Shown here piece after piece: positions 12,001-39,000 of a stretch of DNA of 64,000 bases; position 1 is the first letter of the stretch, and every line of letters starts with the position of its first letter. The DNA is taken from contig CAVPOM010000003.1 in assembly GCA_963707025.1 (NCBI GenBank), positions 256,001 through 320,000 of the forward strand, read 5' to 3'. The DNA comes from an uncultured Verrucomicrobiae bacterium (GTDB lineage Bacteria > Verrucomicrobiota > Verrucomicrobiia > Limisphaerales > Palsa-1400). The position numbers are program-made.

Positions 12001-15000
12001 CTGGGCCTGCTCTTTGGCCGCCTGGCCCATGGCCACGCTGGCCACGGCCGCCTTGTTGGATTGCACGGCGTCATCCAATTCCTCCTGGCTGATGGCGTTG
12101 GATATGGCCAGCGGCCGGAAACGTTTGACATCCAGTTCCGTCCGCCCCAATTGCGCTTCCGCCATGCCGAGCTGGCCTTTGGCTTGATCCAGCGCCGCCG
12201 CAAATGGGCGCGCGTCAATCTGGAAAAGCACGTCCCCCTTTTTGACCAAACTGCCTTCCTTGTAATTCTGCGACATGAGATAGCCGGAAACCTGCGCGCG
12301 GATCTGGGCGTTGACGAAGCCGTCGAGCGAGCCAATCCATTCCTGATAGACGGGAACATCCTGGAGCCTCACCGTCATCACCTTGACTTCCGGCGGCGCC
12401 TGCGCCACGGGCGCGCCGGCCTTCTTCGCAGCCGGCCGCGCCGATCAGCAGCGCCATCGCCGCAAAAAAACCCCGGCGCCGGGAGATTCCCAGCCCGCGC
12501 CAATCGAGCAAATCTATGAGTCGCATGCCATTAGCCTCTTTAATAGGCGAAAAGTGAAGCATACCGGGCCGGGAATGTAAAGAGCGAGCAGAGAATGTCT
12601 GTATTCTTGCTGGCAGCCAGCCGCCCCTTGGGCCGGCTCCGCGCGGGCAGCCAGGCCTGGCCCGATGAATCCGCCTGCGCCGGGCCTTTTTCCGGCCTTT
12701 CCCTGGCGGGAGCGGTTTAGAGGCTATTCTGATTTAGTTGATAATCAACGGGTTGCGAAGGGGAGGGGAAACGGGGGGTCAAAAAAAGGGAAAAAATGGG
12801 CGCGTTTGGCAGGCAAAACGGCCTTTTGCCCAAACTATTTTCACTTTTGCAAATCCACTTGTTTGGGGGCAAACGCGACTTGACCGGCCATTGGCAAGGG
12901 TTTTTTTGGGGTGGGCAGGGGCGTTTTCGGGCATGCATTTTGTACCCACGGTGGGCAGTCGCTTTTCAAAAGGTGTGTTTAAATAGTAAATATGAAGATT
13001 AAATTATTCTGTAGTCTGATAGTGACGGTAATCACGGTAGCGGGGCTGGCGGGGTGCGCGACCTCGCACAAGAAGGAGTACCTGGTGCATGAGTTTTGGA
13101 CTTACTCCGACGCCGGGCAGGTCACGCGCCACGAGGTGTGGTCGGAGAACCATCACGGCGGCGGGACGGCGCTGCTGGCGGATCCGGTGGCGACGCAGAT
13201 CGCCAGTTTCCACACCGATCAAGCCGGGCTGGGCGGGGCTTCGGCCTTCACGGTGGGCAACGTGCAGTCCACCGTGAGCAGCAACGCGGCGGCCATTATC
13301 TCGGCGGGCGGGACGGCGGTGGGCAACGTCATCCAGGGAGCGGTGAAGTGAGCCTGGGGAAGCGGGAAGCGGAAATTATGCAACCACTGCTGGATGGGGT
13401 TTATGACCGGAGGATGGCGGCGGCGCTGGCCAGGGGGGCGGCGGCGGCTTACGGGGAGGACCGGGAGATGCAGGCCTGGGCGGAGCTGCAGGGGTGCGAC
13501 GGCTGCGCCATCGTCCGCGATGCCGGAACCGATACGCTGGTTTTTGTGGCGGCGGCGGGCCAGCGCGCGTTTGTCGTGTTCCGCGGCACGACCGATTTGC
13601 GCAACTGGCTCACGGATCTGGACGCGAGAATGGTGAATTGGGAATTGGGAATTGAGAATTTCAAAATTCAAAATTCAAAATTCAGAATTCACGAGGGGTT
13701 TTCGCGGGCGCTGAGGACGGTCTGGCCGGAAATTGTTGACACGCTGGGAAAGCTGGCGCCGGGGAGGCGGAACATTTATTTCACGGGGCATTCCCTGGGC
13801 GGGGCCCTGGCCATGCTCGCTTGCGCTCGCTGGCAAGAAATGCAGAGTGCAGAGTGCAGAGTGCAGAATTCTGCAGTCCCCACTCTCCACTCTCCACTTT
13901 CCGTTTGGCTTTACACTTTCGGCCAGCCGCGCGTCGGCAACGCAGCCTGGGCACGCTGGTATGACGCGCGGCTGGGGAGCCGCTCCTTCCGGGTCGTCCA
14001 TGCCGAAGACATCGTGCCGCGCGTGCCCTGGCTGCTCGGCGCTTACCGGCACGCGGGGACTGAGATTTTCTTTGATGCGCTGGGGAAGGCGCATCAGGAC
14101 TGGCCCTGGTGGAAAAAGGCGCCCTCCGACGCGGCCGGGTTGTGGCGGCAATGGCGCCGCGGCAAGCTGGCGCTGCTGGGGGACCATCATGTCAGGACCT
14201 ATGTCGGCATGCTCAATGGGAAATGCGGCATCCGCCAGGCGGAGTGCGGCGGGCAAAAGGCTGAAACTTTTTTGCGGCGGTCCCGGACTGCCGCCACGGA
14301 CCAACATGGAATTTAACCCACCAGTGGAAATCGCGGCCTGGCTGGGCTGCCTGGCCTTCGGATTCATGTTGTTCAACGAGGGGTCCAAATTTGTGGACCG
14401 GATCCGGGGCAAAACGCCGCACCCGCCCAATGAGCAACTGGAGTTCAGTGTGGCCGTGATGGACCGGAGGGTGTGCAAGCTGGAGGAGGATGGCGCCAAG
14501 CGCTGGGCCAAAATGGAGGCCGACAAGACGGAGATCCTGCTGGCCGGGGAGTTGCGGGCGGAGAAGCTGCACAACCGGATCAACCCCATCGCGGAGGGAA
14601 TGGAGGGGGTGAAGGCGGCGGTGGAACTGAATAATCAACACACCGTGCTGTTAAGCGCCAAACTGGACCATTTGATGGAGACACAGAACGCATGAAAAGA
14701 CTTTTGCCCGCCGATCACGCAGATAAGGCGGATAGGAAACGACAAATTCACTACTATAGATTCCGCTTCCTCATCTGCAACCCTCTGCGTGATCCGCGGG
14801 CAAAAAATGCCGGACAAAAAATATGAATGCGCAACAACATGAGATTTTTCGCGAGACGATGCTGCGGGCCTTCCAGGCGGCGGCGGGCTGCGGCCTGTGC
14901 CTGGCGACGCTGGATGTGACGCTGCGGACCTGCGGGTTCAAGCGGTTCGAGGAGCAGGACATCGAGGCGGAGGTGCAGTATTTCACCGACAAGGGATTTG

Positions 15001-36000: not shown

Positions 36001-39000
36001 CCGGGGACGCCGCCGGGCGCGGCGCAGGCGGAGCTGGTTTTTCCGGCGCTGCCCTATCAACGGACGGTGAATTTCTCCCCGGTCTATCCTGGCGGGGGCG
36101 CGATCAACAGCGTCTTCGCCATCGTGGCATCGCCCCCGGCGGTTTATCTGCCGGGCCTGGTGAGCTGGGCCTGTTCGGCGAGTTCGTTGCAATGGGAGTT
36201 CGCGGCCTGGAGTTGGAATGCGAGCGTGGAATACAGTTTCGCCCTCGGCCACTTTGGCGCGCTGGCCACGGCGCCGGGGACAATCACGCAGACGATCACG
36301 CTGGGCCGGCCTTACTCCTTAAGCGATGTGGCGGCGCAGGCGGCGGCCTTGATGAGCGCCACGACCTTTGCCGCGATTGCCTGGGGAACGTCGTGGCAGA
36401 ACACCTACGATGCCACCGGGGCGGTGGTCTCGACCCAGAATTTTGCGTTCGATGTCACCAACGCCATCACGGCTTCCTGCCGGATCGGCACGGAGGTGAA
36501 GTGGGGCGCGGCGGTCAACGGGCTGTTCACCTCGGGGGCGGCTTCGTGTTATTGCAGCAAAGCCCTGGTGGACGTGTGCGGCAATTATTGCCAGCGGACC
36601 TACCACTGCCCGACGGTGACGTGTGTTTCGGGCAATGTGGACGGATACGCGCCGGTGGAGATTGACCCGCCGGGCACGCCGGGGGAATCTTCTGCGATTT
36701 ACGCGGGGTGCCAATGCACCTGAAGAAATGCAGAGTGCAGAATGCAAAATGCAGAATGAAATGCGGCCTCCTCCGCAGAGCCTGCCACCTGCGCCGGGCC
36801 TTCGGTGGACAGGACGGTGGACGGGATGGTGGACAGGGAATGAAGAATGCAAAATGAAAATCAGCCCATCCTCCTGCGCCTCAGCCTCGCCGAAATCCAC
36901 TCGCGCGGACGGGTCAGGACGCCGGGATATGTGGAGGCGCTGCTGGCGGCGGGGCGGGCGGACGCGGACGGGGTGCATTGGCTGGTGCCGCTGGCGGCGC
37001 TGCGGGAGGTGTGGGCCCGCCATGGCGCGCCGGGCTTGGACCTGGAGCATGGGGGCGGCTGCGGCGGATGCGGCTCCTGAAACGGGGCGGGCTTTTGGCC
37101 GGCGCACAGTCAAACACAATGTTGCCATGCCGGGAACCAGGCCCTTTGCCAGGCGCGTGTGCTCCCCGGAACGGGCCGGGTTTTGCGCTGGCGGCTTGTG
37201 GAAAGGGCGGGGGGATGGCATGGTGGCGGGGCTTGAAAATACTCGTCGCCATGACCGGGGCCAGCGGGGCCATCTACGCGCAGCGCCTGCTGGATAATCT
37301 GGATCCGGGCCGGCACGAAATCCATGTGGTGCTGAGCCATTACGCGCAGGTGGTGCTGGCGGAGGAGCTGCCGGGCGGCCTGCGCCTGGCGGCCGGGGTG
37401 ACGACGCACGGCCTGAAAAGCATGAACGCGCCCTTCGCCAGCGGCTCCAATCCAGTGGACGCCATGGTGGTGATCCCCTGCACCATGGGCACGGCGGGAC
37501 GGATCGCGCACGGGTTCAGCGAGGACATTTTGCTGCGGGCGGCGGACGTGACGCTGAAGGAGAAGCGCAAGCTGATCCTGGTGCCGCGGGAAACGCCGCT
37601 GAGCCTGATTCATGTCAGGAATTTTGAGCTGCTCCTGCTGGCGGGGGCGGTCATTCTGCCGGCCAATCCGTCCTTTTATCATCGTCCGGCCAGCATTGAG
37701 CAAGTGGTGGACAGCGTGGTGGGGCGGGTGCTGGATCATCTGGGAATTGGGCACGGGCTGGTGCCGCGCTGGCAAGAAGAAAAGGAGTGAGGCCGCCACA
37801 GCCGAGGACGCAGGATGTTTTTCTCGAAAATACGGAAATGGGCCGGGTTCATCAAGCTGTCGCACACGGTGTTTGCCCTGCCCTTTGCCCTGGCGGGGAT
37901 GGCAGTGGCGGCGCGGGAGCAGCGCGGCTGGCCGGGCTGGCGGAAGTTCCTGCTGATCCTGGCGGCGATGTTTTGCGCGCGGACCTGCGCCATGGCCTTC
38001 AACCGCATCGCGGACCGGGAACTCGACCGGGCCAATCCGCGCACGGCGGGGCGGCCCCTGGCGGCGGGGGAGATTTCGGCGGCGGGGGCGTGGGCGCTAT
38101 GTTTGACAGGGGCGGCCGGGCTGGTGCTGGCGAGCTGGCTGCTCAATGATGTCTGCGCGGCGCTGTCGCCGGTGGCGCTGGTCATCGTGTGTTTTTATTC
38201 GCTGACCAAACGGTTCACCGATTTCAGCCATGTTTTCCTGGGGGTGGCGCTGGGGCTGGCGCCGGTCGGGGCCTGGCTGGCGGTGAAGGGGAGTTTTCAT
38301 TTTTTCCCGGACGGGGCCAGGACGCTGGAGAACAGCGCCATCCTGCCGCTGCTGCTGGGGGCGGGGGTGGTGTTCTGGCTGGTGGGCTTCGACATTATTT
38401 ACGCGCTGCAGGACTATGAGTTTGACCGGGCGCACGGCCTGCATTCGCTGGTGGTGCGGTGGGGTGTCAACAATGCGCTGGCCGCGTCGTTTTTGTCGCA
38501 CATGATCATGTGGCTGGTGTTGATGGTGTTCGGATTGCTGGCCCGCTTCCGGCTGGCCTATTATGTCGGGCTGGTTTTTATTCTGGGCTGCCTGTTCATG
38601 GAACACTGGCTGGCGCGGCGGCGGAGCTTGAACTGGATCAACCAGGCCTTTTTCCGGCTCAACGCCGTGATCAGCGTGGTGTTCGTGGTGGTGACGCTGA
38701 CGGAAATCGTGTTTCCATTCCTGCGCTTTAGAAGGTGAACTTTTTTTGAGGCGGAGCGGACCAGGACCAAGCCGGCAAAGGCAGGGGTCGGTGTCTTAAT
38801 TTGTTTTTTCGGGCGTTCTCCGATTGCGTTCAATGGGTTACGCACGAAATTGCCGCATGGGTTGTATTACAGTCATTTTTGCACTGGCCCGGCATTGGTT
38901 AAAAGCCCGTATCCGGCGGCGATAAAACCGCCGTTCGTCAAAAAAGTAGAAACCCTCCAAAATTGGTTTGTTTGCGGCGGTATCTGGAAAGTTTTTGGCC

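Follow-up and report, generated by a model that had tools for sequence, protein, structure and literature searches.

Genomic setting and gene content of the block

The window analyzed here is a 64,000-nucleotide stretch of one contig from an uncultured Verrucomicrobiae bacterium (genome G000). At 12992-37080 it holds a 24-kb block of co-oriented genes for a lipoprotein, a class 3 lipase, a holin-like protein, an HTH protein, small and large terminases (terS and terL), a portal-protease fusion, an HK97 capsid, an adaptor, and tail proteins. The phage head-tail block that a survey of this genome had reported, with its co-oriented terminase, portal, capsid, adaptor, and tail genes, is therefore real. 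Its GC content is host-like (0.58 to 0.66 versus ~0.60 for the genome), as the survey had stated, and HMM searches of the block proteins recovered no integrase, repressor, or replication gene; the sole transposase belongs to an IS630 insertion at 34784-35791. An NCBIfam search of 28 proteins gave a name to the capsid alone, and the capsid of the related genome G003 matched TIGR01554.

The left flank of the block is an RND operon, and the right flank is ubiX-ubiA. G003 carries the block between identical flanks, with an additional GH92 gene on the left side; G005 has the right half of the module at ubiX, and G002 and G004 have hdac-ubiX with the module absent, all of which agrees with the flanks described previously. 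G005 was the only one of 23 other family genomes examined to have the module beside ubiX (22 of 23 without). The features are as follows.

12808..12991 (+): promoter-like element; palindrome CCCACGGTGGG at 12945-12955, ~24 nt, TGTGT, and a -10-like box directly before the first ATG
12992..13351 (+): opening gene of the lysis cassette, 119 aa, putatively lipoprotein-like; 38% identical to the same-position gene of the G015 prophage; no HMM match
13378..14316 (+): class 3 lipase, lysis cassette; PF01764 (E 2.9e-31); dS 0.76 versus G003; repeat insertions, in frame
14306..14695 (+): putative holin-like membrane protein, from one N-terminal hydrophobic segment and position; no HMM match; kept in the prophage and other modules
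14823..15092 (+): 89-aa protein preceding terS; phrog_436 (E 0.0065); presumably Mu gp26-like, by position
15168..15833 (+): small terminase (terS), assigned by position; 28 to 30% identical to G003 terS and 31% to G015 terS; no HMM match
15924..17279 (+): large terminase (terL; Terminase_6N/6C); PF03237, PF17289, phrog_5909; omega 0.14 and dS 1.15 versus G003
17276..20173 (+): portal joined in frame with the head protease; PF04860, phrog_2662, phrog_4523
20170..21433 (+): HK97-fold major capsid protein; PF05065, phrog_10; intact 420-aa frame in G003
21572..22066 (+): virion protein of 164 aa, decoration-like from its position; in the prophage and satellite-like elements, homologues lie beside the capsid gene; no HMM match
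22297..22941 (+): head-tail adaptor; phrog_442
23054..23767 (+): 237-aa neck/terminator-like protein, neck role proposed from position; C-terminal Fn3-like domain (PF13290, PF13287)
23863..24784 (+): predicted non-contractile tail tube-fold protein; AlphaFold model (pLDDT 82) with Foldseek similarity to two T5 structures, the tail-tip chain 7qg9_G (E 2e-7) and the tail tube (E 9e-7)
24841..25987 (+): pair of conserved tail-tip genes coding for 136 and 211 aa, in every module covering the region; other elements carry the 211-aa domain joined to fibres
26017..30751 (+): receptor-binding region, swapped; fibre in two frames that are probably a single gene, LamG lectin (PF13385), apiosidase-like glycoside hydrolase (PF13204)
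30887..31693 (+): tape-measure-like remnant; N- and C-terminal ends conserved, middle repeat-filled
31847..34222 (+): baseplate hub-like protein, a weak label; low-confidence model (pLDDT 53), locally similar to Mu gp44-type hubs (E ~1e-3)
34284..36723 (+): tail-tip gene, ~490 aa in G003 by comparison, IS630-interrupted
34784..35791 (+): IS630 with TA at both ends; DDE_3; the TA site is unoccupied in G003
36847..37080 (+): final gene (77 aa), with conserved counterparts in G003, G005, and L234

The MuF-like domain between portal and protease is eroded and repeat-filled, and the REP doublet that the survey had placed in frame in the portal gene was found there as a 27-nt perfect inverted pair (18821-18930) within the open frame. 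The fusion is likewise open in G003, L231, L233, and L234; in G015 and G016, portal plus MuF and protease are separate genes. The terS of the window is a replacement relative to that of G003, and the G003 alignment to the receptor-binding region ends at 26483 with none beyond, as expected from the swap claimed for this region. The N terminus of the 268-aa remnant at 30887..31693 aligns to helical proteins of 508 to 550 aa from the prophage and the satellites; its tape-measure label is a weak ESM lead. A tailocin reading was rejected because the head genes (capsid, portal, and terminase all present) are intact.

Breaks in the window copy

The survey had counted a capsid indel as a sign of decay. 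The capsid gene has one extra base at 20625 that is absent from an independent contig of run X1, the genome is indel-rich (its rpoB lies in 10 pieces), and the 420-aa frame is intact in G003; the extra base is very probably an assembly error. A second extra base, at 24520 in a homopolymer of the tube gene, is probably also an error. Reads of run X1 were patchy over the block, with the tube indel, the hub stop, and the fibre junction outside their coverage, and a blastn test of indel frames gave 63 in-frame versus 61 out-of-frame indels within genes, a noisy result with many compensating pairs. The other two reported breaks are present in this copy: a TAA at 32387-32389 splits the hub gene, which is intact in G003 (797 aa), and IS630 interrupts the tail-tip gene. 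With 19 other copies in the genome at ≥99.5% identity, this IS630 is a recent host insertion sequence outside the module proper.

Descent from a Mu-like transposable phage

A prophage on contig C4 of G015 encodes MuA (phrog_310), MuB (phrog_296), Gam, and Dam ahead of a late gene order that matches the block. The block is collinear with this prophage, minus some genes, with the Mu-type late set and order present (lysis-HTH-terS-terL-portal-protease-capsid-adaptor-tail), the same promoter geometry, and late genes at 30 to 57% identity. On gene order and similarity, the block is the late operon (lysis, packaging, head, and non-contractile tail) of a Mu-like transposable phage, and the comparison shows the loss of the repressor-MuA-MuB early region. 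Since the parent is a transposable phage, the earlier description of the module as integrase-less is uninformative.

Unlike the prophage, the block has no repressor, MuA, MuB, or Gam, its portal and protease are fused, and its tape measure is halved and moved. The tail-completion gene located 3′ of the adaptor in full prophages (the G016 homologue matches phrog_26, E 0.003) is missing from the window block, as are the chaperone genes of the parent prophage. The tail of phage Mu itself is contractile, as PDB titles state, whereas the window tail is predicted to be non-contractile from its T5-like fold.

HMM and PHROG searches found no MuA or MuB inside or beside the block, and the early region is absent at an identical boundary in G000 and G003. 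Among 10 informative close metagenomic loci, host genes lay upstream of the module in all 10 and MuA/MuB in none, and the left flanks were of six kinds; the range of the module is thus wider, and its site less fixed, than the single site in three species proposed previously. Transposase-binding end repeats were not evident by eye at the ends of the window block, and only the left end of the G015 prophage has repeats; searches for Mu-type ends gave no left/right repeat match in that prophage or in an element on contig C12 of G000.

Distribution and inheritance

The tail hub gene occurs in 20 of 31 family genomes, and a full-length G015-type MuA occurs in 1 of 31; the reduced architecture of the module is common to many genomes. 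Lone lysis-terminase cassettes, which the survey had taken as the only part kept in other genomes, have a portal-tail partner at a separate locus in G007, G008, G015, G020, and G026. The survey's alternative of a slowly decaying Mu-like prophage thus holds for the Mu-like origin, given the G015 parent; its slow decay is weakened, since the main break very probably arose in assembly and the lone cassettes have partners elsewhere. Real decay is seen in the closed genome G009, with scattered terL copies and no hub.

A sister version of the module spans five genera, often in two loci, and follows the RpoB tree: its tail tree correlates with RpoB at a Mantel r of 0.92 (13 genomes; kin not independent). 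Inheritance of the window type appears only partly vertical, because terS/terL and the tail tip have been repeatedly replaced (terS/terL even among near-identical genomes, L240) and module dS between G003 and G005 (1.1 to 1.8) is at least twice that of host genes (0.43 to 0.56), although dS against G003 is host-like in the window copy. Close tail relatives are also present in other genera, and with them in the comparison r drops to 0.46.

Selection on the module

Against G003, core genes had dS of 0.22 to 0.44 and omega of 0.06 to 0.44, compared with host dS of 0.13 to 0.41, and the capsid was the most conserved gene of the module. This reproduces the dN/dS pattern of the survey, as does the raised dS (0.7 to 1.15) of terL, the lipase, the hub N-terminal part, and p171. 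Omega of the tape-measure remnant was 0.83. Between G027 and G029, head and tube genes had dS of 0.14 to 0.36 and omega of 0.08 to 0.25 (host dS, 0.14 to 0.39). Of 95 gene copies in 11 other related loci, 93 were intact, as were 88 of the 94 copies from 13 sister modules, whose putative capsid is 83 to 93% identical over four genera. Domestication, meaning retention under selection with largely vertical descent, therefore appears supported, and more strongly than the survey claimed, by omega far below 1 at host-like dS together with gene intactness.

Probable palindromic promoter and dispersed terS cassettes

The element at 12808..12991 is probably an activator-dependent late promoter. The same geometry of palindrome, TGTGT, and -10-like box is found ahead of the G015 prophage's late operon and of the G007 portal-tail locus, and in G007 and G008 palindrome variants stand before each of the two split loci. 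Five further copies of the full element lie in G000, and it recurs chromosome-wide, often ahead of orphan small-terminase genes; terS-like orphans were found in 26 of 31 genomes, with up to 23 matches. Loose palindrome patterns had fewer matches than reversed controls, and an exact 11-mer in G008 had 20 matches versus 17 in the control, and the case for the palindrome rests on common flanking context, not on count. The palindrome is common to G000 and G003 although their terS are only 28 to 30% identical, and we therefore rejected it as a terS recognition site. A Mor/C-type activator was found in none of five genomes.

Interpretation of the module and its alternatives

These results suggest that this soil bacterium and many relatives keep apparently functional particle-building genes without transposition genes. 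We give about an even chance to the reading of the block as a domesticated, host-kept particle module that packages host DNA, like gene transfer agents (GTAs) or PBSX. An activator supplied in trans would bind the palindrome and switch the operon on in some cells, and HK97 heads with a portal and a short non-contractile tail bearing swappable receptor-binding proteins would be assembled. Since the locus appears unable to excise or replicate, the terminase would load chromosomal DNA into the heads from a start within or close to terS, and perhaps also from the dispersed promoter-terS cassettes, and the lipoprotein-lipase-holin cassette would free the particles. The outcome would be DNA delivery, as by a GTA, or mere killing or blocking, as by PBSX. 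Delivery is doubtful, unless a tape measure comes in trans, because the tape measure is degenerate and tail genes are missing. Alignment A3 detected no tape-measure homologue in G019, G027, or G029, although A3 also missed the satellite gene of G000.

Such a supply in trans could come from MuA-MuB satellites. It is unlikely, in our estimate, that these are the resident helper of a phage split in two, in which satellites with their own tape measure (some also with capsid or fibre) complete the module tail and get packaged. Satellites would provide what the module is missing: a tape-measure-like gene (310 to 555 aa or contig-cut) lies directly 3′ of MuB in 11 of 16 satellite loci, 4 of the remaining 5 stop at a contig edge, and within the DNA examined none has terminase, portal, or tube. 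They occur in 11 of 20 hub-positive versus 2 of 11 hub-negative genomes, 5 of 12 members of their MuA-like family match phrog_310, and G000 carries one satellite-like MuA-MuB element (C12:197-210 kb), but its gene matches the tape-measure profile over 21 residues only. This MuA family is absent in 9 of 20 module genomes, including the near-closed G019 and G015, yet the modules of G019 and G029 are under selection. Moreover, an unlinked satellite alone cannot select for a host locus, and satellites may instead parasitise full phages such as that of G015. A search with the satellite MuA found no IMG/VR locus and no PDB match. A precedent is the Vibrio PLEs, which encode their own tape measure for chimeric tails according to the available text of PMC12987554; like the elements here, they have a tape-measure-like gene and no tube, portal, or terminase. 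The MuA-MuB elements differ in being transposase-based and in that their possible helper is a chromosomal module, and the likeness concerns this partner element, not the window block. A literature search on transposable satellites with a tape measure returned no paper that matched in full.

Anti-phage interference seems quite unlikely. The late activator of an infecting relative would turn on the module and the promoter-terS copies, and early lysis, tails without tape measure, and decoy terminases would poison assembly. The promoter common to module and phage, the lack of a detected activator of its own, and the widespread terS-like orphans fit this model, as do the losses touching infectivity (MuF domain, tail completion, chaperones, tape measure) beside conserved shell proteins and the repeated swapping of terS and tail tip in two independent lineages. 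However, interference has no need of intact receptor-binding fibres and glycoside hydrolases, and G015 holds a sister module and a MuA/MuB prophage together. We consider it distinctly improbable that the modules are slowly decaying remnants of repeated Mu-like insertions that shed early genes, with the selection signal left over from life as a phage or brought in by recombination with live phages. The hub stop and IS630 in the window strain, the repeats inserted into many genes, a MuF domain lost step by step, the omega of the tape measure, the mosaic terminase and tip, varied flanks, and fragments in G009, G021, and G014 are consistent with decay. Yet omega is far below 1 although the early region is missing at one boundary in G000 and G003, nearly all gene copies have stayed intact even where dS reaches ~1 to 2, and the putative sister capsid and the match of tail tree and RpoB leave slow decay largely refuted for the sister type.

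Comparison with known systems

The domesticated-module reading can be set against the GTA criteria in the available text of Kogay et al. 2022 (PMC9662315): caudoviricete-derived proteins; full endogenization, often at several loci; mostly vertical inheritance with codiversification with the host; encapsidation of mostly random host DNA; inability to package the whole own genome; and delivery of DNA to other cells. Caudoviricete-derived proteins are present here (terL, portal, and HK97 capsid HMM matches plus the tube fold). Endogenization is seen in its genomic part: no mobility genes, host flanks, and a sister type split over loci. RcGTA and other GTAs likewise have a head-tail cluster without replication genes, purifying selection, and multiple loci in relatives, and the RcGTA tape measure (~216 residues) is, like that of the window, short (available text of PMC9662315 and PMC7296036). 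Unlike RcGTA, the window module derives from a transposable phage in Verrucomicrobiota and is not an RcGTA homologue; unlike GTAs, its tape-measure middle is unconstrained, its terS turns over rapidly, and it has candidate sequence-defined packaging starts. DsGTA packaging peaks, by contrast, lack motifs as described in the accessible part of PMC5786225, and in Staphylococcus aureus terS serves as a packaging signal when under its native promoter (10.64898/2026.06.26.734846, available text).

If active, the modules would represent two domestication stages, one type being old and vertical and the other younger and mosaic, alongside the MuA/MuB-bearing parent prophage. A family-wide multi-locus gene-transfer system is rather unlikely; it would be domesticated from a transposable phage and combine one palindromic late promoter coordinating the split structural loci, dozens of dispersed promoter-terS cassettes serving as sequence-defined packaging starts on the chromosome, and a new class of transposase-based satellites that supply or exploit the absent tape measure, module plus satellite forming the infectious particle. 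The PBSX tail is contractile. PBSX of Bacillus subtilis is likewise a defective prophage able to package host DNA, with no transfer in the accessible account (PMC7667829); it has its own repressor, Xre, whereas no regulator was found for the window module. GTA genomes that are multi-locus and vertically inherited are among the features given in PMC9662315, as far as its available text goes.

Few lineages are known to have domesticated phage particle systems, and in the literature covered, which left out most subscription journals, we found no description of one in Verrucomicrobia/Pedosphaerales. If active, the module would be a path for gene exchange or competition among abundant soil and peat bacteria, and the promoter-terS cassettes predict sharply where packaging would begin. 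Such modules have already been entered as viruses in IMG/VR.

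Gene content and origin of the block

The block has host-like GC and is flanked by an RND operon on one side and ubiX-ubiA on the other.

Features of the window
12992-37080, block, co-oriented: lipoprotein, class 3 lipase, holin-like gene, 89-aa protein, small and large terminase, portal fused to protease, HK97 capsid, adaptor, and tail genes
13620-13910, 16718-16760, 18660-19400, 31100-31500: in-frame repeat insertions, different in each relative
39538-40742: IS3-family element
43374-46551: second IS630 copy
56245-57250: fragmented gene run

In G015:C4, from a relative with a full Mu-like prophage, the late genes follow one another as in the block, at 30 to 57% identity, behind MuA (phrog_310), MuB (phrog_296), Gam, and a DNA methylase. 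This match identifies the block as the late operon of a Mu-like transposable phage. The survey had stressed the lack of an integrase; there is indeed none in the block, but with such an origin its absence is uninformative. Compared to the G015 parent, the window lacks the early region, the tail-completion gene (the G016 homologue matches phrog_26), two small genes after the tube gene (23863..24784), and most of the MuF domain. Its portal is fused to the protease, and in place of the parent's 508-aa tape-measure-like gene stands a 268-aa version, positioned before the hub, a 797-aa tip gene. The reduced layout recurs in the close relative G003 and, as far as the contigs cover it, in six IMG/VR contigs (L231 to L236), one more contig at zero distance from G003 being left out of the count. 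The tape-measure remnant is shorter or uncalled in L231, L232, and L235, and the portal is split in L236. L237, L238/G016, and L275 keep a fuller layout.

A structure model of the tube gene, built from 16 homologues (pLDDT 82), matched T5 tail-tip and tail-tube chains (E = 2e-7 to 1e-5), so the tail is noncontractile; the tip gene gave only a weak hub-like match. The sole transposase in the block belongs to a recent IS630, of which the window's genome, G000, has 19 further copies. Capsid relatives in named records were mostly Verrucomicrobiota, one labelled Limisphaerales. The lysis cassette (12992-14695) comprises lipoprotein(s), a class 3 lipase, and a holin-like gene; no recognizable endolysin was found there or in the G015 prophage. 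REP-like and simple repeats of genome-wide types sit in frame in the lipase, terL, portal, and tape-measure remnant. Left of the RND operon, positions 919-4265 encode a pupylation system (proteasomal ATPase [ARC] and Pup ligase genes). The fragmented gene run adjoins a second outer-membrane efflux gene and likely reflects assembly frameshifts.

Selection and chromosomal site

Between G000 and G003, 17 core segments had dS of 0.22 to 0.44 and dN/dS (omega) of 0.06 to 0.44, and seven host genes had dS of 0.13 to 0.41 and omega of 0.10 to 0.20, bearing out the earlier claim that the core diverged like host genes under purifying selection. More distant were the lipase, terS, terL, the hub N-part, and p171 (dS 0.7 to 1.15 or saturated), with p307 at 0.58; the tape-measure remnant was near neutral (omega 0.83). 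Between G003 and G005, module dS was 1.1 to 1.8 versus 0.43 to 0.56 for host genes. Homology between G000 and G003 begins at one common position ahead of the first gene, so the simplest account is that the early region was already gone when these genomes split, and the measured selection would then postdate that loss. Retention of the module under selection is well supported and highly probable.

An hdac gene, the ancestral neighbor of ubiX, adjoins it in 21 of 22 noncarriers; in G000, hdac is found on a different contig, where no phage genes adjoin it. Upstream of 10 informative close metagenomic loci were host genes, six different ones, with MuA/MuB in none. The site is thus lineage specific: the RND-ubiX flanks, proposed as one site in three species, do not hold across these loci.

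Breaks and family-wide range

The capsid and tube breaks in G000 are, relative to G003, single extra bases in homopolymers. Because rpoB is in 10 pieces in G000 (whole in 22 relatives) and frameshifts affect 5 of 53 host genes (56.8 kb), the assembly is error-prone, and its pseudogene calls are unreliable. Heavy frameshifting of rpoB, rpoC, and EF-Tu is seen at C6:393-406 kb. The capsid base at 20625 is exactly missing from one contig of sequencing run X1 (depth 4.1), which is not conclusive alone; X1 coverage reached this indel, not the tube indel or the hub TAA. The IS630 insertion, one of the breaks listed by the survey, is real; the extra capsid base is very probably an assembly error, and the tube one probably so.

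Of the 31 family genomes, 20 have the hub gene; terL was matched in 24 of 30 relatives. Full-length G015-type MuA was found in 1 genome; G005 has a partial match adjoining a MuB-like gene. Most other carriers hold a sister module, in which the tail is the same but the head is of Mu type, with a PF06074 portal and a PF10123 protease. The sister tail tree recovered three host genera, with inner branching largely as in RpoB; the tail-RpoB Mantel r was 0.92 (13 genomes), or 0.46 with four window-type modules added, kin not being independent. Between G027 and G029, head and tube are at host dS (omega 0.08 to 0.25) with terS and tip swapped, repeating the window's pattern. Sister modules had 88 of 94 gene copies intact, five of the six breaks falling in the hub. 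The hub is split in L086, L088/L089, L091, L093, and L095, at about residue 310 to 320 in four of the five and near 380 to 400 in G025, possibly a recurrent natural split. In all eight modules examined (four genera), the portal is the first gene of the structural locus and is preceded by non-module genes; G007, G008, G015, G020, and G026 carry the lysis-terminase cassette at another place.

Putative tape measure and satellite-like elements

The window remnant keeps both ends around a middle of unalignable, repeat-derived sequence; it is labelled a putative tape measure from its position, its helical composition, and a weak ESM lead. A second MuA-MuB family, of which 5 of 12 members match phrog_310 (MuB, phrog_296), has longer versions, mostly 430 to 555 aa, after MuB in 11 of 16 loci, some with a capsid. 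Fetched DNA of these loci contained no terminase, portal, or tube. Strong MuA-like matches of this family occur in 13 of 31 genomes.

Satellite-like elements
L101:4885-18001 = G000:C12, about 197-210 kb: repressor, fibre, MuA, MuB, 432-aa gene (profile match only 21 residues)
G007:C79, G010:C100, G018:C62, G020:C3, G023:C11, and others: further elements

Their order is MuA-like, MuB-like, and tape-measure-like gene, some with protease-capsid or tail fibre. They are possibly a new satellite class, resembling PLE satellites, which are reported to bring their own TMP (PMC12987554). The RcGTA tape measure is itself given as ~216 residues (PMC7296036), so a short one alone does not exclude delivery.

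Possible function

A locus that cannot move but has terminase, portal, head, and lysis genes would, on induction, most plausibly package chromosomal DNA, as GTAs and PBSX are reported to do (PMC9662315, PMC7667829). We give the whole reading, a domesticated particle module packaging host DNA, an even chance. That the module instead serves as a helper for satellites is rather unlikely; the satellite-like elements carry longer tape-measure-like genes and accompany it in 11 of 20 module genomes but are absent from the other 9. Infection-triggered interference with phage is a little less probable. Least probable is a decaying prophage remnant. Loss does happen, since G009 (closed), G014, G021, G024, and G030 have terL without a hub match, but 11 other loci keep 93 of 95 gene copies intact (11 of 15 in G000; among the 95, the L240 tape-measure match is probably spurious and the G013 layout differs), and core omega is low.

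A literature search at listing level, with subscription journals and supplements outside its scope, found no description of such a system. Against six GTA criteria, the module agreed with one, with another in its genomic part, and gave a mixed outcome on a third, three being experimental in kind; because of this outcome, it is filed as GTA/PBSX-like, not as GTA.

Putative promoter element and terS cassettes

A palindrome lies 36 nt upstream of the first ATG, followed by ~24 nt, TGTGT, and a -10-like box. The same arrangement heads the G015 late operon and a G007 portal-tail locus; in G007 and G008, variants of it precede both split loci. Its position would suit an activator site; no Mor-family activator was found in the five genomes searched. 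Five further full copies of the 180-bp promoter element occur in G000 and three further copies of the pattern in G003 (reversed control, 0).

Dispersed promoter-terS cassettes in G000
C2:75493, C4:726281, C5:296500, C14:22519, C17:34063

These share a fairly sharp left boundary and are lineage specific; further cassette or terS loci are L278 to L325. Exact palindrome copies in shared context number 28 in G007, at least 6 of them before terS-like frames, and 20 in G008 (16 before terS-like frames, one before terL, two heading module loci). Since terS under its own promoter is reported to suffice as a packaging signal in S. aureus (10.64898/2026.06.26.734846), the cassettes are candidate packaging starts. 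When two G003 promoter copies were checked, the G000 ortholog was intact for one and truncated for the other. Orphan terS-like genes (phrog_426) occur in 26 of 31 genomes, with up to 23 matches each. G009 (L020 to L037), G022, and G057 each carry more than one orphan terL with an open frame, and some of the copies in G009 and G022 form paralogue pairs in the tree.
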